Origin: a virus
Direction: 5' to 3' (one strand)
Virus record (IMG/VR): IMGVR_UViG_3300037473_000101
Span: 1-43,967 of that record
DNA length: 43,967 nucleotides
Each line of letters opens with the position of its first letter. Positions within the stretch are counted from its first letter, which is position 1. Positions 20,671-43,967 of this stretch are shown piece by piece. The notes under the pieces were generated by a model. The model saw nothing but the letters and a program-made list of their open reading frames with translations. It was not told where the DNA came from and did no database searches. The translations under genes and the position numbers were made by a program.

Positions 20671-21581
20671 TGCCGCAGCTTGCTTCAGTTGGGAGGTTGA
20701 TGAGCGGGGGCGCTGGTGGAGCCGCTGTGGTCACCCCCGGCGCCTTCGACGCCATGCAGGCCCTACAGGCCGGATATTGCCTTGTCGGTGTGCAGCGGCT
20801 GATCAGCTCGGCCGTTTATTCCGGATACGCATATCGGGTTAGGCGGTCCTCCGACAACACCGACATGGACTTCCTGCCCGGGGCGCTCTCCGTGGACGTT
20901 GCCGCCTGGATTCAGGCGAATGGAGCTGCGGTCGGATATATGACCAAGCTCTATGACCAATCCGGAAATGCACGGGACAGCGATACCGGAACAACCGGAT
21001 CAACCGGCACGTCTCCGACCCTTGATTGCTCGGTTTCGACTTACCCTGTTGCAGTGTTCAACGGCACGTCGAATCGCATCGCGTGGTCAGGAGCATCTAC
21101 GATGCTTCAGATCAACACGACGGCGCCGGGCATTACCCTCTCCATGGCGATGCAGCCGACGGGCACGAACTCCGGAACCGCTTTCTATCAAGCGATTTGC
21201 ACGAACAGCGGAAACACATCGCGGACTTCTCTGGATTTCTTGGTAACGCCGACTCTGAGCTGCCGAACCAGCCGGGTTGACGGGACCCCAACCTCAGCCA
21301 ATGCACCGACCTTCTGGGATCTCAATCCGCACATTCTAACCGGCGTCTCCGATATCACGGGGGGCACGGAAAAGCGGTACATCGACGGCGTCGCGGGGAC
21401 GACGGCCAATTTTACCCCTGTAGCCTCACCGAACTTTGTCGCCTCTGCTGCTGTTTTTATCGGCGGCCTGAACACTGGAAGCTTCACCAAACTCAATTGG
21501 ACATGCTCCTCATTTTATAACGTGGCCCTCACCGGCGCAAATCTCACCGCGCTTGAATCCGCCATGGAGGCCGCAGCATGA
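20670..21581 (+). CDS. Tail-associated protein, LamG/ConA-like lectin pattern (putative)
   Basis: GYAYRVRRSSDNTDMDF...KLYDQSGNARD pattern. Lies between the fibre and the spike. Confidence 0.45.
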   Translation: MPQLASVGRLMSGGAGGAAVVTPGAFDAMQALQAGYCLVGVQRLISSAVYSGYAYRVRRSSDNTDMDFLPGALSVDVAAWIQANGAAVGYMTKLYDQSGNARDSDTGTTGSTGTSPTLDCSVSTYPVAVFNGTSNRIAWSGASTMLQINTTAPGITLSMAMQPTGTNSGTAFYQAICTNSGNTSRTSLDFLVTPTLSCRTSRVDGTPTSANAPTFWDLNPHILTGVSDITGGTEKRYIDGVAGTTANFTPVASPNFVASAAVFIGGLNTGSFTKLNWTCSSFYNVALTGANLTALESAMEAAA

Positions 21582-23107
21582 CCGTCCCAACCTTCCTTGG
21601 GGGGAACCTCCGCGCCCCGTTGATGATCAACGAGACCAACTGGAACACCGGCAAGCTGTTCCTGAAGTCCGGCATTACAGCGGTCAAGTTCTTTCAGCGC
21701 GTCGGCACGGCTTACACCCTCACTGTCTCAGGATACTACACCGGGACCACGACCAAGGTTCAGGTTCGCATCATCGATGCGGTCTCTTCTGCAACAGTGG
21801 TGGATTGGGCTGATCTTGACGCGGCTCCGGCGAACAATGCTTTCACCGGCACAGTCTCTGTGCCTCAAGGCAACCTCGACGGTTCATGGAAATACAGCGT
21901 CCAGGTCCGGAAAACCGACACTCCGTCCACGGTCTATACGTCCTACACGGTGATTTCGGTCGGCATCGGCGTTCTGATGATCGGGCAGTCCAACACCGAG
22001 AAGCTGTTCGGCCAGTACACCGTGACACCCCTTGCTGCGTCTCCGGGCGTCTTCCGCTACGCCGGGGGTTCCTTCACCGGATGGTATACAAACGACACTC
22101 TCACGCAGCCCGACGAGCCGACCGCGACGAACGGCATCGATGGGTTTGCGGGGTCCGGATCGACGGCTCTTGGCAATACCATTGTCGCCACCACGCGGGT
22201 TCCGGTGTTCCTGCTGGAAATGGCAATCGGCGCAACGACAATTGCGACGTGGCAGACCGGTCAATCTTCCTGGACCAACCTCCTCACACAGGTTGGACGC
22301 GCTGTTGCTACGGGATACGGATTTGAAATCGTCTACTGGCAGCAGGGCGAAACCGATGGTGTGCAGGGTACTGCCAAGGCGACCTATAAGACCAACCTCA
22401 CCAATCTCTATAACCAATGTCTCGCTCTGAGCGGTCGCGCCCATATCGTCTTTATTCTTGGGTTGCTGAGCGACGACGGGTCTGCGACCGACGCCAACGC
22501 GAACAACATCTCTCAAGGCATTCTTGAGTGGTATGACGGGGTGAGAGCGGGGAGCATCGTCCTCAACGACGCAAGCGCCGCAAGCTATCTGGATCTCACG
22601 AGCTACCGTGACCAGCAGGCGACGCTTGACCCGCATTTCACGACGGCCGTCTATATCATCTTCGGATACCGCGGCGGCCAGGCCATCCTGTACCGGATGG
22701 GGCTGGAATCGGTCGGCATGTCGGGTCCGTTCTTCACGGGGGCACTGACCGCTTCCGCTGCCACGCAGACGATCACCTTGCCGATTACCCAGGATGGTGG
22801 ATCGGCTCTCCGGGATTCGGGGGGCGGGTCTGCGGGAACATCGCTGACCGGGTTCCGGGCGTTCAACAACGTCACTCAGAAGACGATCAGCAGCACGGCG
22901 TTTTCCGGAAACAACATCGTCCTGACCTTGGCGGGCGGGTCGTTTGTCAACGGCGACACGATCAACGTTGACTATCTGTACGGAGGCGGGGCCTCGCTGC
23001 CGGTCTACACCAACCTCGTCTACGACAACCTGACTGTGCCGAATACCGGGTTGGGCAGGCCGTTGCAGCCGACGAGAGGGCAGATCAGCGGGACGGCGGG
23101 GGCGTGA
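21578..23107 (+). CDS. Tail spike/fibre protein with a SASA-type (SGNH-like) carbohydrate O-acetylesterase domain
   Basis: Motifs GVLMIGQSNTEKLFG, AIGATTIATW, IVYWQQGETDG and YKTNLTNLY in the order typical of the sialate O-acetylesterase family. Confidence 0.6.
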   Translation: MTVPTFLGGNLRAPLMINETNWNTGKLFLKSGITAVKFFQRVGTAYTLTVSGYYTGTTTKVQVRIIDAVSSATVVDWADLDAAPANNAFTGTVSVPQGNLDGSWKYSVQVRKTDTPSTVYTSYTVISVGIGVLMIGQSNTEKLFGQYTVTPLAASPGVFRYAGGSFTGWYTNDTLTQPDEPTATNGIDGFAGSGSTALGNTIVATTRVPVFLLEMAIGATTIATWQTGQSSWTNLLTQVGRAVATGYGFEIVYWQQGETDGVQGTAKATYKTNLTNLYNQCLALSGRAHIVFILGLLSDDGSATDANANNISQGILEWYDGVRAGSIVLNDASAASYLDLTSYRDQQATLDPHFTTAVYIIFGYRGGQAILYRMGLESVGMSGPFFTGALTASAATQTITLPITQDGGSALRDSGGGSAGTSLTGFRAFNNVTQKTISSTAFSGNNIVLTLAGGSFVNGDTINVDYLYGGGASLPVYTNLVYDNLTVPNTGLGRPLQPTRGQISGTAGA

Positions 23108-26784: not shown

Positions 26785-26964
26785 CTTACCCTCCCTTAAG
26801 AATGCTGCGGGCCGGTTGGATTCAAACCAACGTGAGTCCCGATCCCTCGGGTCTCCGGGCGCGTTGCCCGGCGCATTCGTTCGCTCTGCCACAGTCCGCA
26901 GCATTGACCGGCGAACCGATCCCGAGTATTGTACGGACACGCTGACTCAGACGCAAGGGCAATC

Positions 26965-28266: not shown

Positions 28267-28303
28267 CTACTTGTACAAGTAGCGGCCCTACTTGATCAAG
28301 TAG
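28267..28303. promoter_or_regulatory. Two tandem perfect 16-bp palindromes (operator pair)
   Basis: CTACTTGTACAAGTAG at 28267-28282 and CTACTTGATCAAGTAG at 28288-28303, with centres 21 bp apart, just upstream of the minus-strand gene starting at 28245. Confidence 0.6.
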
Positions 28304-28489
28304 GGGTGTTATTTGATGGGTAAATTGATAAAAATACTTGACGCTAAGCATCAAATGGCGTCACCGGCCATGTGTGGTCGATTAAGGAAATTGTGGCGCT
28401 GGCGGATGCCGCCTATGCCGCGCCGAAGTCGCGCGGACCGTATAAGAAGCGGGCGCAGGGGTAGATTGCTGGATCCCTGTGAAGAAAGT

Positions 28490-28576
28490 TGTGGATAACG
28501 TGTGGGTAACTCCTGTGGATAACTATAGATACGGTATATCCACAGAATTTAGCACCAAATGTTGATTTGTGGATCG
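28490..28576. promoter_or_regulatory. Cluster of five DnaA-box-like 9-mers (putative replication origin or DnaA-controlled region)
   Basis: TGTGGATAA at 28490-28498, TGTGGGTAA at 28501-28509, TGTGGATAA at 28514-28522, ATATCCACA at 28536-28544 (opposite orientation) and TGTGGATCG at 28568-28576. Consensus is TTATCCACA / TGTGGATAA. Confidence 0.6.
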
Positions 28577-28647: not shown

Positions 28648-28747
28648 GGAAGTGTGGCAGAGTGGTTTATCGCAGCGGTCTTTAAAACCGTCGGGGGAAC
28701 GCCCGTCAAAGTCAGTACCCCCGTGGGTTCGAATCCCACCACTTCCG
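28648..28747 (+). tRNA. Type II (Ser-like) tRNA with anticodon UUA, a putative ochre suppressor, and an unusually long variable region
   Basis: Acceptor GGAAGTG/CACTTCC and discriminator G. T arm GTGGG-TTCGAAT-CCCAC. Anticodon arm GCGGT-CTTTAAA-ACCGT with U33 and A37, so positions 34-36 are TTA. Variable region is 31 nt. The D stem has one A.C mismatch. CCA is not encoded (CCG follows). Confidence 0.7.
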
Positions 28748-29168: not shown

Positions 29169-29299
29169 TCACTGCGGGCGCGCATACCCCGTCATTCAAT
29201 CCCATGCCAACCGGCATACCCCCTCAATTCAAACTAAGACACTACCCGGAATAGGGAGACTATATTTTCCATAACGAGTGCGTCCTTCCGAATCGCTGT

Positions 29300-29656
29300 C
29301 TAGTGGCCGATGATTTCCGCTATCCGCCGCAGCAGCTCCGGGGCAGGCTCGAACCACTCGCCACGGAGCCGGTAGCGGGTAAATTCCCGGTGCAGGGCGG
29401 CTTCCCGCAGCCTGCCGCCATGGACGGCCCCGAGGAGCGTCAGGGCCTCATGGTGGACGCCCTGGATCAGCCGCATCCGGTCGCGGGGATCGATGGCGAT
29501 GCCGATCTTGATCGGCCCGCTGGCGCTCTGGATGAAATAGACTAGCTTGGCGCGGCGCACCTTGCGCCCGGCCGCCAAGTCCTCGCGCTCAAGGCCCTTA
29601 TAGGCTCGCTCGTACTCTCGGGTGAGCAGGGCCTCCGGGTGCTTCCTTCTTTCCAT
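29300..29656 (-). CDS. T5orf172 / MUG113 (GIY-YIG-like) domain protein
   Basis: KLVYFIQSASGPIKIGIAIDPRDRMRLIQ...GGRLREAALHREFTRYRLRGEWF. ATG at 29656 chosen within ORF 29300-29737. Confidence 0.65.
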   Translation of the reverse strand: MERRKHPEALLTREYERAYKGLEREDLAAGRKVRRAKLVYFIQSASGPIKIGIAIDPRDRMRLIQGVHHEALTLLGAVHGGRLREAALHREFTRYRLRGEWFEPAPELLRRIAEIIGH

Positions 29657-29804
29657 AATCACCACACACTTGGTTTCTGGTCGGTGTGAGCCGTTTCGTC
29701 TACCTGTAGGAGCGAACTGCACAGGAACGATAATCACAGGGTAAATTGACTAAGCAGCTTAGAATCTTGCGACTCTTACAATGTTGCGGGTGCGGTCAAA
29801 AACG

Positions 29805-29843
29805 CGTTCGCATAATGTATATTAGTTGAAGATTATGGAAAAT
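29805..29843. other. dif-like XerC/XerD recombination site
   Basis: CGTTCGCATAA-TGTATA-TTAGTTGAAGA followed by TTATGGAAAAT. Positions 29809-29824 (CGCATAATGTATATTA) are identical to the core of E. coli dif, GGTGCGCATAATGTATATTATGTTAAAT. Confidence 0.6.
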
Positions 29844-29893
29844 ATCAACATCTAGTAGGTCTTTAACATTGTTTCCTATTTACAGGTGAGGGG

Positions 29894-30223
29894 TTAGCCC
29901 TCGTCCTTGATCCTCGGGTACATGCCGTTCTTGTAGGCCCCTCCGTGCATCTGGCGGATCTGGTTGTTCACTGCGGCGATCTCGTGCTTGATCGCCATGA
30001 GCTGAGTATACTCGTCCAGGTCGGTGCGGCGAGCGGTGAAAGCGAGTTGTTCGGCTAGGCCGGCGAGGAGGGGAGCGATCTTCCGAATCAGATGCACGTC
30101 ATTGAACGGAATCTGAAGCCGCCCCGATGCCCCGATAAGCTCGCGCTTCCAGGCGGGCATCTCATCGAACTGCGAGGCCCTGCGGCGTTTGTCCATCACT
30201 TCCTCAGGCGTAATCTGGACCAT
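29894..30223 (-). CDS. Hypothetical protein (109 aa), last gene of the long minus-strand operon
   Basis: ORF with an ATG start, co-oriented with the early block. Confidence 0.6.
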   Translation of the reverse strand: MVQITPEEVMDKRRRASQFDEMPAWKRELIGASGRLQIPFNDVHLIRKIAPLLAGLAEQLAFTARRTDLDEYTQLMAIKHEIAAVNNQIRQMHGGAYKNGMYPRIKDEG

Positions 30224-31543: not shown

Positions 31544-32653
31544 TCATGGGTGATGATCCGGGCCTTCTCGGCACGTCTCCGTTCGGTTAGGGGAACCGCA
31601 GACTTCGCAGGCGCCGCCTCCGAGAACAGCGTAGTGTGGCTTCCCGTCCTGGGGTGCTAGGCGGTCGATGATGGCGAGGAAAGCCGCAATCTCCGGACCA
31701 ACTATTGCGCCGCCGTTTCCCATTTCCGCTCGCATCCAATCGAGCAGCTTGCACTCCGCCTCGCTCAACCTCTGCGGCGGGTTGTGGCGCTGGAGGATCT
31801 CCAGGATATCGGCTCGGACTTCGCACCATGTCACATCGTCCGCCGAGAACTTCCGCTGAGACCAGTCCTTAAAGCGGCGGTAAATCCGCGTCATGATCTC
31901 ATCGATCTCTGCCGCTTTCTTCTCCCACCCGTCTGCCGGGGCGGGGAAGGGGAAATGCGCCGCCGGATAATCGCAATTCGGGCACTTATTAAACCACCCA
32001 TCCGGTGCGGAAGGTGGGGCGGGTTGAGGGGCTGAGGAGAGCCGGGTGAGGAGCGCGGCGGCTTCACGTTTAAGCGCGACTTCCTTCGCAAGCAGCTCGT
32101 CTCCATGCTGATACAGCGCGATGCCAAGGTCGCAGCATTCCACAGCGACACGCTCCATCCCAACACCGTTGTCAACGTAGTGGTATGGGTCACGCCCGCA
32201 GAATGAACAGACCGGCCCGTGGCTTTCGTCCGGGCACAGCCGCGTCACCATCTCCCGTACTTCTGCATCGAACTCAGCCGCCAGTCCATCCAGGGCGGGT
32301 TGAGGGGCGCTCTGGGTGGCGCGGGCTTTGCGCACCATGTCAAGGACATCACAGCGAACCTCGTAAGATGAGATCGGTGGATTGTCGCGGTGAAGCTGCG
32401 TAAAATACTCAACGATCTCGTCAACCGTTGCCGCCTCCCGCTCCCCTTCCACGGCTGCCTGGGATGCTGCGTTGAGACGGTTCCACACGGCGATGGCTTC
32501 GGCTGGCGTCTCGTAGAATGCCGTCGAGGCAAGGCAGGCGGTGCACGCGGCCCTCGCCAGGTTGGCGAAATGCTCTGACCCGCAGTCCTTCAAGATGATC
32601 GCGCGACCTTCGCACTCGCACGGCTCCAGTTCGTTGCTATGGTCGCTCGGCAT
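31544..32653 (-). CDS. Multi-domain Cys-rich protein with an N-terminal Lar-family (restriction-alleviation) domain
   Basis: LEPCECEGRAIILKDCG...ACTACLASTAFYETPAEAIAVWNR matches the Lar hallmark (Cys pairs plus EAIxxWNxR). Internal repeats DEIVEYFTQLHRDNPP / DEIMTRIYRRFKDW. ATG at 32653 after AAGGAGCCCCCA. Confidence 0.55.
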   Translation of the reverse strand: MPSDHSNELEPCECEGRAIILKDCGSEHFANLARAACTACLASTAFYETPAEAIAVWNRLNAASQAAVEGEREAATVDEIVEYFTQLHRDNPPISSYEVRCDVLDMVRKARATQSAPQPALDGLAAEFDAEVREMVTRLCPDESHGPVCSFCGRDPYHYVDNGVGMERVAVECCDLGIALYQHGDELLAKEVALKREAAALLTRLSSAPQPAPPSAPDGWFNKCPNCDYPAAHFPFPAPADGWEKKAAEIDEIMTRIYRRFKDWSQRKFSADDVTWCEVRADILEILQRHNPPQRLSEAECKLLDWMRAEMGNGGAIVGPEIAAFLAIIDRLAPQDGKPHYAVLGGGACEVCGSPNRTETCREGPDHHP

Positions 32654-33191
32654 TGGGGGCTCCTTGGGAGAGGGCTTCGCGTGCGCGCACGTTGATGCGC
32701 AGTAAGTCGTGATCAAGAACAACGACCAGCAACCGCTTATCTTCAGGAACTTGATCGCGTGTCTCCCGCGTGATTGCGACGATCTCCTCCAGCGCCTTGC
32801 GGGCTTCGGATAGGGCTTGCTCGGCTGCTTCCTGGCAGGCTCGGGCTTCGTTCCGTTCCGTCTGCCAACTTTCCATTTCGCGTTGAAGCGCCCTGCAATC
32901 GGCTTCGTGGACGCGTTGAAGTGCTTTCACGCCCGCATCATGGCGCGCTACGTCCAGGCCCAGGGCTTCGAGGCGGTCAGTCTGTTCGTCAGCCTGCTCT
33001 GAAAGAGCGCACGAGCGACCGAGAGCCCCCGCGTATTTGTCCCTCAGGTCCGTCAACTCCTTCTCAAGGGCTTCGATGCGGTCGGCGCCCCCATAAAGCG
33101 CAACCGCCATCTTGGAAGTCGGCACGTAATCGTCCGCGATCCCTCGCAGTCTCGCCACAAGATCCTGGCGCGGGTCGGCCTTATCGGTCAT
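32637..33191 (-). CDS. Coiled-coil protein (184 aa)
   Basis: ORF with an ATG start and heptad-rich sequence. Confidence 0.6.
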   Translation of the reverse strand: MTDKADPRQDLVARLRGIADDYVPTSKMAVALYGGADRIEALEKELTDLRDKYAGALGRSCALSEQADEQTDRLEALGLDVARHDAGVKALQRVHEADCRALQREMESWQTERNEARACQEAAEQALSEARKALEEIVAITRETRDQVPEDKRLLVVVLDHDLLRINVRAREALSQGAPNAERP

Positions 33192-37871: not shown

Positions 37872-38504
37872 TCAGGCGGACTGCACATTGGTGGCGATGA
37901 ACTCGGCGTAGGCCGGCGGGATTGCCTGCGAGAGTTCCCGCCGGTTCATCCAGTCGATCCCCATTACTTCCTGCGCGTGCTTTAAATTCAGCGGCTTCCT
38001 TGAAATGCCGCCCCGGGTAGATTTGCGCACCCCCTTAAAGGGGCCGCCCGTCCCCGTCACGTCGATCGGCTTAGGACATAGCGAGTGGTTGCATTGAGGG
38101 CTCAACAACAACGGCTCGCTGGTCTCGAAGCGACGATGCCGCCAAACGCCAAGCCCGAACATTGAGCCGCAGAGGGTCACCGGATTGCGGAGATCCGAGC
38201 CCACGACGTTCTCGATCGCCCACGGGCGCCCGCTCTCGCGGAGCATCTCCCGGACCGGATCTATCAGCTTGCCGCGCTTTCCCTTCGCTAAGCTCTTGAG
38301 GGCGGAATAGTCTTGGCATGGCGGGCTTGCCCAGATGAAGTCGAAGCGCGAGAGATCGAATGGCGGCTTCAGCGCGTCAGCCTGGACAAAGGCATCACCG
38401 CAATAGTTCGGCTGCGGCTCGATATCGACTCCGACCACAAAGAACCCTGCACGTTGCAGCCCCCTGGTGGCCCCGCCGGCTTTGCAGAAAAGATCAAGAG
38501 CCAT
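37872..38504 (-). CDS. DNA (cytosine-5)-methyltransferase, short phage type
   Basis: Motif I DLFCKAGGATRG, motif IV SPPCQDYS, motif VI ENV, and C-terminal QAIPP. ATG at 38504, with an alternative GTG at 38522. Confidence 0.8.
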   Translation of the reverse strand: MALDLFCKAGGATRGLQRAGFFVVGVDIEPQPNYCGDAFVQADALKPPFDLSRFDFIWASPPCQDYSALKSLAKGKRGKLIDPVREMLRESGRPWAIENVVGSDLRNPVTLCGSMFGLGVWRHRRFETSEPLLLSPQCNHSLCPKPIDVTGTGGPFKGVRKSTRGGISRKPLNLKHAQEVMGIDWMNRRELSQAIPPAYAEFIATNVQSA

Positions 38505-38509
38505 CGGCT

Positions 38510-38641
38510 TCACTCTACGCACTCCAACTCAACGTCTTCGCCGTCCTGGCCGGTGCCTTCGCAGTCCGGGCAGACATCAAGATGATCGTCGGGGTCAATT
38601 CCGGAGCCGCCGCACCGCTCACAAGGGCCAACCATCATCAT
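38510..38641 (-). CDS. DnaJ-type zinc-finger mini-protein (43 aa)
   Basis: MMMVGPCERCGGSGIDPDDHLDVCPDCEGTG (CxxCxGxG twice). Under the ORF-track cutoff. Confidence 0.4.
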   Translation of the reverse strand: MMMVGPCERCGGSGIDPDDHLDVCPDCEGTGQDGEDVELECVE

Positions 38642-39822: not shown

Positions 39823-40230
39823 TTAGGTCAGTTCCGGCAGCACCGCTTCCATCTGATCGAGCGCAGAACGGAGATCGGCCAGGCCCTGCCGATCCATCTG
39901 AAAAACAAAGTATCCGCCATTACTTAGGAGAAATACCAGCTCCGGGCGGGGGCCCCTCCCGTGTGTATTGGCGACTACCTTCCGGACCACGGCGGTCCCT
40001 TCGGGTGCCGCGAGGGGCGTAGCGTCGTCCATGGCTATAGGTTCCTGCTGAAGAGCAGCGACTGCCTGCCTAAGGGCTTCGGCCTCGTCGTGCTTAAGTG
40101 CCCGCACGCCGTTAAGAACCTTGCTGATTTTGTCTTTCGCAATACCGGACTGGCGGGCGAGAGAGGCTTGAAATCCCCGCGGCCCTGTTTCGATGGCTTC
40201 CTTTAGCCATTGAGGCGGTCGGTACTGCAT
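39823..40230 (-). CDS. CI-like HTH repressor candidate (no peptidase domain)
   Basis: FQASLARQSGIAKDKISKVLNGVRAL helix-turn-helix. Divergent from the Cro-like gene. ATG at 40230, with alternatives at 40260 and 40263. Confidence 0.6.
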   Translation of the reverse strand: MQYRPPQWLKEAIETGPRGFQASLARQSGIAKDKISKVLNGVRALKHDEAEALRQAVAALQQEPIAMDDATPLAAPEGTAVVRKVVANTHGRGPRPELVFLLSNGGYFVFQMDRQGLADLRSALDQMEAVLPELT

Positions 40231-40284
40231 GCCCCATTGTGGCGCGATTCTGACGTGCATCATATCGCTAAGACCGCACCGATG

Positions 40285-40334
40285 TCGCGCCAAACCCTCT
40301 TGACACTTGGTGCGAAGATCGCAATATTGGCGAC
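40285..40334 (+). promoter_or_regulatory. Sigma70-like promoter and overlapping operator for the Cro-like gene, predicting a leaderless mRNA
   Basis: TTGACA at 40300-40305, a 17-nt spacer, and AATATT at 40323-40328. ATG at 40335 lies 7 nt after the -10 element. Inverted repeat TCGCGCCAA (40285-40293) / TTGGTGCGA (40307-40315) brackets the -35 element. Confidence 0.5.
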
Positions 40335-40562
40335 ATGGATGTTGCGAGCCGTGTCATTGAGAAGTTTGGTGGCGCCTACGCACTGGCCGAAAAGCTGAAG
40401 TGCAGGCCGTCCACCATTTACCGCTGGACCCTCCCCAAAAAGCGCGGAGGGACCGGCGGTCACGTTCCCCAGCGGCAGCATGAAAAGCTCCTGAAGCTCG
40501 CGCGCAAGCACAACATCGCCTTGAGCTACGCAGACTTCATTCCGAAGGACGAAGCCGCATGA
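40335..40562 (+). CDS. Cro / YdaS-like small HTH regulator
   Basis: VIEKFGGAYALAEKLKCRPSTIYRW pattern. Divergent from the repressor-like gene. Confidence 0.6.
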   Translation: MDVASRVIEKFGGAYALAEKLKCRPSTIYRWTLPKKRGGTGGHVPQRQHEKLLKLARKHNIALSYADFIPKDEAA

Positions 40563-42205: not shown

Positions 42206-42336
42206 CCCTGCTCGCCGCCATTCTGCTCCTCCAGATCCCTCTCGGCATCTTCTTCGGTCGGTGCATACGGGTGGGTTCCAACCGCTCAACCTCTTCTCAT
42301 GTCCTCCAGTTCCGCAGGGGAAGGAGATTCGGATGA
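42202..42336 (+). CDS. Small hydrophobic-N-terminus ORF (44 aa), uncertain
   Basis: ATGA overlaps at both ends. MTLLAAILLLQIPLGIFFG... Confidence 0.3.
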   Translation: MTLLAAILLLQIPLGIFFGRCIRVGSNRSTSSHVLQFRRGRRFG

Positions 42337-42614
42337 ACTCAGATTTCTGGACTGACCGCCGTGTTCGCATTCTCACCAGCATGTGGGAAGCAGAGAAGAG
42401 CGCCAGCGTTATCGCCGGAGCGCTCAACTGCACTCGGGATATGGTAATCGGGAAGGCGCATCGGCTGGGCCTTAAGGCTCGCCTGTCGCCGATCAAAGCT
42501 GACGCCGTGCTGACCGAGCAGCGGCGCGCCGCAACAAGGAAAAAGCGCCGTTACTATCTCGTCAACCAGCGTCGCGAATCCATGGGCCTCCCTCCACTCC
42601 CGAGGGAAGCATGA
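42333..42614 (+). CDS. GcrA-like cell-cycle regulator homologue (short, 93 aa)
   Basis: WTDRRVRILTSMWEAEKSASVIAGALNCTRDMVIGKAHRLGLKAR matches the GcrA N-terminal DNA-binding domain. ATG at 42333 follows GGAGATTCGG. Confidence 0.75.
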   Translation: MNSDFWTDRRVRILTSMWEAEKSASVIAGALNCTRDMVIGKAHRLGLKARLSPIKADAVLTEQRRAATRKKRRYYLVNQRRESMGLPPLPREA

Positions 42615-43555: not shown

Positions 43556-43967
43556 GCCAACGAGACCAGATTGTCCGAGCCCTGAAGCGGGGTGATTCAC
43601 TCGGCCCCTACATCATTATAGGCGACGCGCCGCGGTCCCCGGCTGGACATCGCAGGCTCCGAGTTCAATGCACGGTATGTGGTGGGGAGAAAGTCACCCA
43701 GGTCCACAACGCAGCAAGATCGAAATCTTGCGGGTGTCTGACGAAGCAGATCCTGCGGCAGGCAAGGACCGTTCACGGGCATTCGAAGGGGAGGGGAGGC
43801 AATGGGAGCCCTACCTATAGTTCATGGCATTCGATGCACGAGCGCTGCAAGCGCCCTGGGCACAAGTCCTACGCCGACTATGGCGGCCGGGGGATCACGG
43901 TTTGTGAACGCTGGGAGTCGTTTGAGAATTTCCTTCAGGACATGGGCGAACGCCCGAAGGGGCGCAC
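43552..43967 (+). CDS. HNH-type endonuclease-like protein, 5' portion (continues at position 1 of the circle, ending at 392)
   Basis: ATG at 43552 in an ATGA overlap. No stop to the window end. RVQCTVCGGEKVTQVHNAARSKSCGC...TYSSWHSMHERCKRPGHKSYADYGGRGI. Confidence 0.75.
   Translation, partial: MSQRDQIVRALKRGDSLGPYIIIGDAPRSPAGHRRLRVQCTVCGGEKVTQVHNAARSKSCGCLTKQILRQARTVHGHSKGRGGNGSPTYSSWHSMHERCKRPGHKSYADYGGRGITVCERWESFENFLQDMGERPKGR
43841..43967. repeat. Terminal direct repeat, right copy (identical to 1-127)
   Basis: Base-by-base identity with 1-127. Confidence 0.97.

Follow-up and report, generated by a model that had tools for sequence, protein, structure and literature searches.

The locus described here lies in the genome of a tailed soil phage in which no integrase gene could be found, and it raises the question of whether a sequence resembling the chromosomal dif site could be the attachment site of that phage. 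Hijacking of the Xer system is a known strategy of phages, whether filamentous or tailless (DJR), as well as of genomic islands, plasmids and the phage-like element LME-1, and tailed temperate phages are generally assumed either to encode an integrase or to live as plasmids. If the site were used for integration, classical tailed phages that rely on XerCD would be added to the elements with IMEX-type lysogeny, which would explain how tailed phages that have no integrase can be temperate, and prophage finders, which now rely on integrases and are blind to elements flanked by dif, would gain a new signature.

The phage genome and its probable host

The window, by which we mean the whole stretch of 43,967 nt analysed, has ends that are identical over 127 bp (positions 1–127 and 43841–43967), as is typical of a circular assembly path with k=127, so that the genome is complete, either circular or circularly permuted, with a length of approximately 43.84 kb (~60 % G+C). 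Structural genes occupy the plus strand over ~1–25.5 kb and are syntenic with those of the Bradyrhizobium phage ppBjS10J-1. A minus-strand early operon includes genes for a C5-methylase, a Gp157/Gam-like protein, Erf and SSB, among others, and ends with ORF109, beyond which lie the gap that contains the site and a MUG113 gene.

An earlier reading made from the sequence only reported a CI/Cro-type switch and no recombinase gene, and both observations stand. A CI-like HTH protein (39823–40293, minus strand) faces a Cro-like protein (40335–40562, plus strand), and in one relative, L023, the early-left operon begins at an HTH plus Peptidase_S24 repressor and includes RecT and Lar. Integrase, resolvase and partition domains were not found in the approximately 60 ORFs of the complete circular genome (Phage_integrase, Resolvase and Recombinase being among those looked for), and in the relatives no gene lying up to 10 kb from the site carries a recombinase Pfam annotation. 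Absence of an integrase of its own, one of the criteria for an IMEX, is thus seen in the complete genome as well as in the gene tables of the relatives. A 392 aa ORF at 31544–32722 (minus strand), the largest early gene that has no assignment, was considered as a hidden recombinase and rejected, having only a Lar-like (restriction alleviation) N-terminus, a remainder that resembles nothing known and no recombinase domain.

Genes for a GcrA-like cell-cycle regulator (42261–42611), a C5 cytosine methyltransferase (37875–38522) and a DUF1376 protein (260–967) make up a set typical of alphaproteobacterial phages. Because of the GcrA-like and DUF1376 genes, and of the structural module held in common with the Bradyrhizobium phage, the host is probably to be sought among the Alphaproteobacteria. 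No related phage was recovered from INPHARED by nucleotide searches in near and distant mode.

Some further features were recorded. A tRNA-like gene at 28648–28747 (plus strand; Rfam RF00005, 52.4 bits) has the anticodon loop CUUUAAA, giving the anticodon UUA that would read the UAA stop codon, and an unusually long variable arm of 29 nt; ARAGORN misses it at default settings and in relaxed mode reports Ser(tga) interrupted by an intron of 13 nt. The gene may encode an ochre suppressor, and TAA terminates 12 of the 57 predicted genes. The 94-nt tRNA-Arg(acg) that ARAGORN predicts at 26806–26899 (minus strand) is below the Rfam gathering threshold; probably it is either spurious or a very aberrant tRNA. 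A late protein of 509 aa (21578–23104, plus strand) contains a SASA (sialate O-acetylesterase-like) domain, and a function as a tailspike or receptor-modifying enzyme is probable.

A dif-like site with an invariant core

The site is located in an AT-rich gap between two minus-strand ORFs, as originally described, and reads CGTTCGCATAA-TGTATA-TTAGTTGAAGA-TTATGGAAAAT (29805–29843). Within it, the 16-mer CGCATAATGTATATTA (29809–29824, plus strand) corresponds to positions 5–20 of the E. coli dif site, GGTGCGCATAATGTATATTATGTTAAAT (Carnoy & Roten 2009, Table 1, PMC2731167), confirming the match of 16 out of 16 reported previously. It is present as a single copy in the window, and dinucleotide shuffles predict only 0.01 matches even when 2 mismatches are allowed. 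When the dif sites of Erwinia and Neisseria in the same table (PMC2731167) are used for comparison, the match lengthens to 19 nt, GTTCGCATAATGTATATTA.

The part of the site identical to canonical dif that proved invariant, TCGCATAA-TGTATA (29808–29821, plus strand; hereafter the core), is made up of the inner 8 nt of the XerC-binding arm and the 6-nt central region. The outer 3 nt of the XerC arm, CGT (29805–29807, plus strand), vary among the relatives. At the position of the XerD arm, TTAGTTGAAGA (29822–29832, plus strand) agrees with the consensus at 6 of 11 positions, the figure given before, and the full 28-bp dif finds no match at the site with three or fewer mismatches, so that the XerD arm is degenerate. 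Lacking such a match and lying in a phage genome, the site does not have the features of a canonical chromosomal dif. It does have those of the dif-like site by which an IMEX is recognized, namely an XerC arm, a central region and an XerD arm that may be degenerate.

Immediately beyond is TTATGGAAAAT (29833–29843, plus strand), an XerD-arm motif displaced by 11 bp, which had been scored as matching the E. coli arm at 9 of 11 positions. It is of the alphaproteobacterial type, for which the form is TTATGGAA, and is identical to the XerD arm of the Ehrlichia and Rickettsia dif sites (Carnoy & Roten 2009, PMC2731167), a better match than the earlier score implied. Among the relatives, TTATGGAAAAT is conserved at this position in the close clade alone, and the claim of a displaced XerD arm is restricted to that clade. 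Another option is to take TTATGGAAAAT with the TGAAGA that precedes it as a second, overlapping site in which the D arm is strong and the C arm weak.

In order to examine the conservation of the site, 50 metagenomic loci around ORF109 homologues were used; they represent 13 sequence variants, and the ORF109 proteins share 24–100 % identity. Though the search for the core tolerated up to three mismatches, none was seen in any of the 13 variants, and the exact 14-mer TCGCATAATGTATA is found in all 50 loci, 60–90 nt downstream of the ORF109 homologue with the XerD side toward the gene. Mean pairwise identity among 12 representatives is 100 % for the core (inner XerC arm 8 nt plus central 6 nt) compared to 45 % for the three outer bases of the XerC arm and 34 % for the 40-nt flank on the XerC side. 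On the other side it is 44 % for the 11-nt XerD-arm position, which retains 5–6 of the 11 consensus bases and a single invariant base (A at arm position 9), and 31 % for the next 13 nt, before rising to 77 % in a second block, CAACATNTAGTA (block A), which starts 24 nt beyond the central region. The limits of the conserved block coincide exactly with those of the inner XerC arm plus central region. The outer XerC-arm bases occur as CGT, CAT, GGA, TAA, CAA, TGA, GGT and TAT, and natural dif sites vary likewise in the outer XerC arm (Carnoy & Roten 2009, PMC2731167).

Lack of conservation in relatives had been named beforehand as one of the findings that would refute the proposal, and the full retention of the core in these variants upholds the proposed anatomy of an Xer substrate in which the XerC side is conserved and the XerD side has degenerated. 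That the resemblance to dif arose by chance could be suspected, as the spacer is AT-rich and was originally picked for its dif resemblance, and this can for practical purposes be dismissed, given the value obtained from the shuffles and a core that is perfect in 13 diverged lineages with randomized flanks; the conservation refutes it. The core is, we consider, probably a substrate for Xer recombinases.

According to the supplement of Kono et al. 2011, the same 14-mer is contained in the dif sites of Magnetospirillum and Rhodospirillum rubrum (TTGTCGCATAA-TGTATA-TTATGGATAGA), and it is also present in those of most beta- and gammaproteobacteria. The Bradyrhizobium dif departs from it at position 1 of the central region (GGTATA).

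ORF109, block A and the surrounding elements

ORF109 (29894–30223, minus strand) is the last gene of the early-left operon, lies immediately upstream of the site and encodes a small helical protein of 109 aa that represents a new family. Six homologues were found at first in metagenomes, then 30 using a profile (P0001–P0030), and an exhaustive HMMER scan of metagenomes gave 251 clusters at 50 % identity. ORF109 has no Pfam or PHROG match, and a Pfam scan of seven homologues (E ≤ 10) produced only noise and no DUF3653, the domain of the Xer activator XafT. A structural model built from seven sequences was unusable (pLDDT 60). An AF2 model from 31 sequences (pLDDT 80) predicts four helices and a basic tail, and a Foldseek comparison of the model with the PDB returned nothing below E = 1. 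In one 427 aa protein with an ORF109-like region at the C-terminus, the remainder gives only a weak DEAD-box match, and the fusion partner is uninformative.

This ORF was among those that the sequence-only reading had proposed for testing, and it proved to be tightly linked to the site throughout the family. The gene and the site stay paired in gene neighbourhoods that are otherwise unrelated, the neighbours being almost wholly different between lineages, and they constitute a mobile module. Its position is nonetheless constant: ORF109 ends the early-left operon and the site lies between ORF109 and convergent lysis/late genes. Lambdoid phages carry int-xis-attP at that position, at the end of the early-left operon and facing the late genes. 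By its linkage to the site, ORF109 is a candidate Xer accessory or directionality factor. If this is correct, there would be a second, unrelated class of Xer activation factor, and the family (~250 clusters at 50 % identity) would provide candidate Xer regulators for studying FtsK-independent activation of XerC/XerD. The module is short and defined, with a site of ~50 bp and a gene of 330 bp, which makes the hypothesis directly testable.

In the window, block A is CAACATCTAGTA (29846–29857, plus strand), exactly 24 nt beyond the central region, and its CAA is invariant at fixed spacing in the relatives. It is a candidate site for an accessory protein. On the XerC side, a non-coding flank of ~150 nt (29657–29804) ends at an inverted GATTATGGAAA that overlaps the start codon of the MUG113 gene. 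This flank is kept in close relatives only, and it could be an accessory sequence or a 5′UTR. The MUG113/T5orf172 (GIY-YIG-like) gene downstream of the site (29300–29656, minus strand; Pfam PF13455, E = 9e-8) is present in the window and in the L005 and L043 groups and is absent or replaced in L002, L014, L026 and L030; it is an optional passenger of some lineages.

A third copy of the XerD-arm-like motif, TTATGGAAAATAT (29262–29274, minus strand), forms a perfect 13-nt inverted repeat with 29833–29845. Two exact copies of TTATGGAAAATAT are observed in the window, and ~0.24 would be expected by chance. The inverted repeat (ATATTTTCCATAA at 29262–29274 and TTATGGAAAATAT at 29833–29845) brackets the MUG113/T5orf172 gene and the dif-like core, an arrangement reminiscent of a pdif-type module or of the boundary of a homing-endonuclease cassette. 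The reading as a pdif module was dropped, as the distal copy is a lone arm that has no XerC partner.

The conserved segment also has the geometry of a promoter. On the minus strand at 29848–29819, TTGATA and TAATAT are separated by 18 nt; the TTG of block A forms the −35-like element and the −10-like hexamer terminates in the first three bases of the core. All 12 representatives keep the arrangement TTG-N3-N18-nAnTAT on the ORF109-sense strand. An explanation that dispenses with Xer would take the conserved block as a promoter with an operator, as the 5′ end of a transcript or as the site of a phage protein such as ORF109, with the identity to dif being coincidental or convergent. Such an explanation would account for block A, a second conserved element for which Xer biology offers no reason, and would fit with the lack of a canonical XerD arm at the right place and of integrated forms (see below). 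However, the invariant 14-mer reproduces the inner XerC arm and centre base for base and stops exactly where the central region gives way to the XerD arm, which is very unlikely to have arisen independently of Xer, and alphaproteobacterial-type XerD-arm motifs lie near the core in 9 of 11 lineages. A promoter scan found 1 site in the region when 1.5 were expected from shuffles, the gene downstream is not the same from lineage to lineage (in L026, L030 and L035 those that follow are convergent), and the site occurs once, unlike a repeated operator. We therefore regard a function unconnected with Xer as rather improbable. A search with Rfam detected no RNA family in the gap.

In none of the lineages is the XerD-arm motif TTATGGAA found at the canonical position. 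In the clade that includes the window, it lies 11 bp too far out, with an inverted copy at −157, and in the other clade it occurs as a direct copy on the XerC side, at a distance of 170–206 nt; there, 6 nt and a weak XerC-like arm come before it and DnaA boxes come after it. This produces a second Xer-like site on the XerC side of the core, at a distance of ~206 nt in L030 (GCGCCCCATAA-TCTGCA-TTATGGAAAAC), ~217 nt in L035 and ~193 nt in L023, where it is cer-like (ACTGTGCGTAA-TTAAGA-TTATGGAAAGC). DnaA boxes lie within 80–190 nt of the core in L023, L026, L030 and L035. In the window, the cluster of DnaA boxes that had been noted 1.3 kb from the site was verified, with three copies of TGTGGATAAC and one inverted box at 28488–28545, and it is a putative element of a replication origin. 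Close by, two adjacent 16-bp palindromes, CTACTTGTACAAGTAG and CTACTTGATCAAGTAG (28267–28303), are followed by an AT-rich stretch, the four DnaA boxes and the tRNA-like gene, and the palindromes and boxes together (28267–28545) look like an origin or operator region.

Possible integration at dif and known Xer systems

The sequence-only reading had suggested looking for prophages integrated at dif and flanked by hybrid sites, and in this respect the outcome was negative. Among 185,579 species genomes, neither a scan with the ORF109 profile nor one with the pattern core-N24-block A detected an integrated copy or a match. The ORF109 family was not found in IMG/VR (a protein search and three DNA patterns) or by tblastn in INPHARED and PLSDB (72,556 plasmids), and no attL/attR hybrids or integrated copies were seen in any of these collections or in the approximately 40 metagenome contigs that span the site, all of which have phage DNA on both flanks (the attP form). 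For 20 sampled clusters of the ORF109 family the sources were exclusively metagenomes, with longest contigs of 41–59 kb. At least one of the sources is bulk soil (Centralia coal-fire series) and not a virome, and lysogens might therefore have been expected, so that the absence is not only an effect of sampling viromes. It may stem from hosts that are uncultured. One contig, L018 (JGI 3300068443, Ga0613824_092980), stops exactly at ...TATACATTATGCGAA, where the conserved inner XerC arm has its outer edge, which resembles a branch between attP and attL in an assembly graph; it is a single case to which we give no weight. Contig breaks as a general sign of attP/attL branching were rejected, since L004 and L006 continue past the core in phage sequence.

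These results bear on a reading in which the core is an Xer substrate acting in cis, with no integration, for the cer- or psi-like multimer resolution or the cyclisation of a circular episome that replicates from the origin marked by DnaA boxes. The circular assembly, the missing integrase, the exclusively unintegrated contigs and the lack of a prophage in any genome collection searched all agree with it, as do the DnaA boxes, whether 80–190 nt from the core in the four relatives or 1.3 kb away in the window, and the clade with a second site ~190 bp off, its XerD arm strong and its XerC arm weak, of which the cer-like site of L023 is an example. On the other hand, the ~60 ORFs yielded no ParA/ParB, toxin–antitoxin or plasmid Rep domains, and none of the 72,556 plasmids carries a gene of the ORF109 family. 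Known plasmid Xer sites keep the XerD arm while the XerC arm and centre drift, the opposite of what is seen here, and a site that recombines with itself needs no dif-identical centre across lineages whose proteins are as little as 24 % identical. We consider resolution in cis rather unlikely, though less so than a function unconnected with Xer. Nevertheless, because of the DnaA boxes and second XerD-arm sites on one hand and the promoter-like geometry on the other, both an episomal origin with resolution and a promoter or operator stay alive as explanations.

The reading that leads is integration, in which the core and its flanks mimic dif for the XerC and XerD of the host and form the attachment site of temperate tailed phages of soil Alphaproteobacteria that have no integrase. 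We hold it tentatively, as a serious possibility that falls a little short of being probable. XerC would bind the invariant arm, nnnTCGCATAA, and the central region TGTATA would supply the homology for strand exchange with the chromosomal dif of the host. The XerD side, degenerate as in the attP of TLCphi and in difGGI, would allow the integrated phage to escape excision driven by FtsK. ORF109 would have an accessory or activating role like that of XafT in TLCphi, and block A, 24 bp away from the crossover region, may be where it binds.

Several lines of evidence favour integration at dif. The identity to dif is exact over 16–19 nt, unique in the genome and far beyond chance, and conservation of the core is 100 % when it is 31–45 % in the adjoining segments across the 13 variants. 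An invariant central region would be expected if the partner site is external, in the host dif, and two copies of the phage's own site would not require it. The module occupies the position of int-attP in lambdoid phages in a genome that has no integrase, and the hallmarks of a temperate phage are present (the CI- and Cro-like proteins and, in L023, the repressor). Finally, there are alphaproteobacterial dif sites with the identical 14-mer, and TLCphi and LME-1 offer precedents for the mechanism. Against integration at dif are the failure to find an integrated copy, with phage DNA on both sides in all of the ~40 contigs, and the GGTATA centre of dif in Bradyrhizobium, the host of the phage that shares the structural module. 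ORF109 lacks DUF3653 and a recognisable fold, the conserved sigma70-like geometry overlaps the core, and part of the conservation could be transcriptional, and the DnaA boxes that several relatives have near the site would suit the origin of an episome.

A more elaborate version is that a widespread family of temperate tailed phages (Caudoviricetes) living on soil Alphaproteobacteria has swapped int-xis-attP for a half-mimic of dif, with a strong XerC arm, an exact central region and no XerD arm, plus a new 109 aa recruiter or activator of the host enzymes that binds close by, and that some lineages have added, ~190 bp off, a complementary site whose XerD arm is strong and whose XerC arm is weak. 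This is conceivable, and we put it forward with reserve.

Among known Xer-dependent plasmid sites, ColE1 cer, pSC101 psi and Acinetobacter pdif likewise place an Xer core close to an origin-like region of a circular replicon, with ~150–190 bp of adjacent sequence on the XerC side. However, the plasmid sites have a strong XerD arm with a variable XerC arm and centre, the reverse of the pattern at the core, and no accessory sites of the PepA/ArgR/ArcA type could be recognised here. The inverted XerD-arm-like motifs that bracket a small gene cassette in the window recall pdif modules, but they are lone arms and not full sites.

The gonococcal genetic island (difGGI) shares with our site the combination of a conserved XerC arm, a dif-identical centre and a degenerate XerD arm. 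Of the elements that integrate at dif, difGGI, VGJphi/CTXphi-type phages and the DJR IMEXs exploit XerCD, with one of the flanking sites having a degenerate XerD arm that blocks FtsK-dependent excision, and in them, as here, the dif-like motif is found at the junction of a lysogeny module. They are, however, islands, inoviruses or tailless phages, and all were defined from integrated copies, unlike the phage examined here. Among tailed phages, ppBjS10J-1 (OP596615) shares a syntenic structural module (TerL 49 %, portal 37 % and major capsid 53 %), has an Erf-type recombination module, as does our phage, and is likewise temperate. It differs in having neither ORF109 nor the dif-like core, and a tRNA-Asp fragment at its end, where the terminal ORF is 425 aa, suggests a conventional attachment site.

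The sequence-only reading had not known Xer hijacking as an accepted strategy of tailed phages, and the novelty implied must be tempered. The tailless DJR phages are known IMEXs (PMC12715192), and the Legionella element LME-1, which is phage-like and includes TerL, has been shown experimentally to be an IMEX of the XerL/dif system (PMC9765430) and is a partial precedent. The TerL of LME-1 shares 30 % identity (E = 2e-47) with that of our phage, and neither element has an integrase. LME-1 differs in that it was found integrated at dif and validated by experiment, in a host that relies on one recombinase, XerL, and whose dif is unrelated in sequence. Its dif mimic is partial (22 of 29 bp), the truncation stabilising the integrated form, and it has no ORF109 homologue, TerL alone being in common.

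The site itself most resembles the attP of TLCphi, a satellite phage of Vibrio cholerae and an XerD-first IMEX, which also has a conserved XerC arm, a centre identical to that of dif and a degenerate XerD arm, has a small gene adjoining the site and has no integrase. In TLCphi, the XerD arm of attP is non-binding, the poor arm limits the reactions driven by FtsK, and the product of the adjacent activator gene xafT (DUF3653) activates XerD (PMC6744903, PMC9226527). ORF109 is not a DUF3653 protein, though it may be a functional analogue of XafT. The two systems differ further in that TLCphi, a small satellite of the filamentous type, belongs to a gammaproteobacterium and needs no flanking DNA, and our phage is a 43.8-kb tailed phage, probably of Alphaproteobacteria, with a second conserved block 24 bp away. 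The closest precedents are TLCphi with XafT for the mechanism and LME-1 for the type of element. The anatomy of the site was already known, and what appears to be new is that classical temperate tailed phages, in hosts with XerCD, carry it as part of a conserved and mobile module together with a small protein of a new kind.
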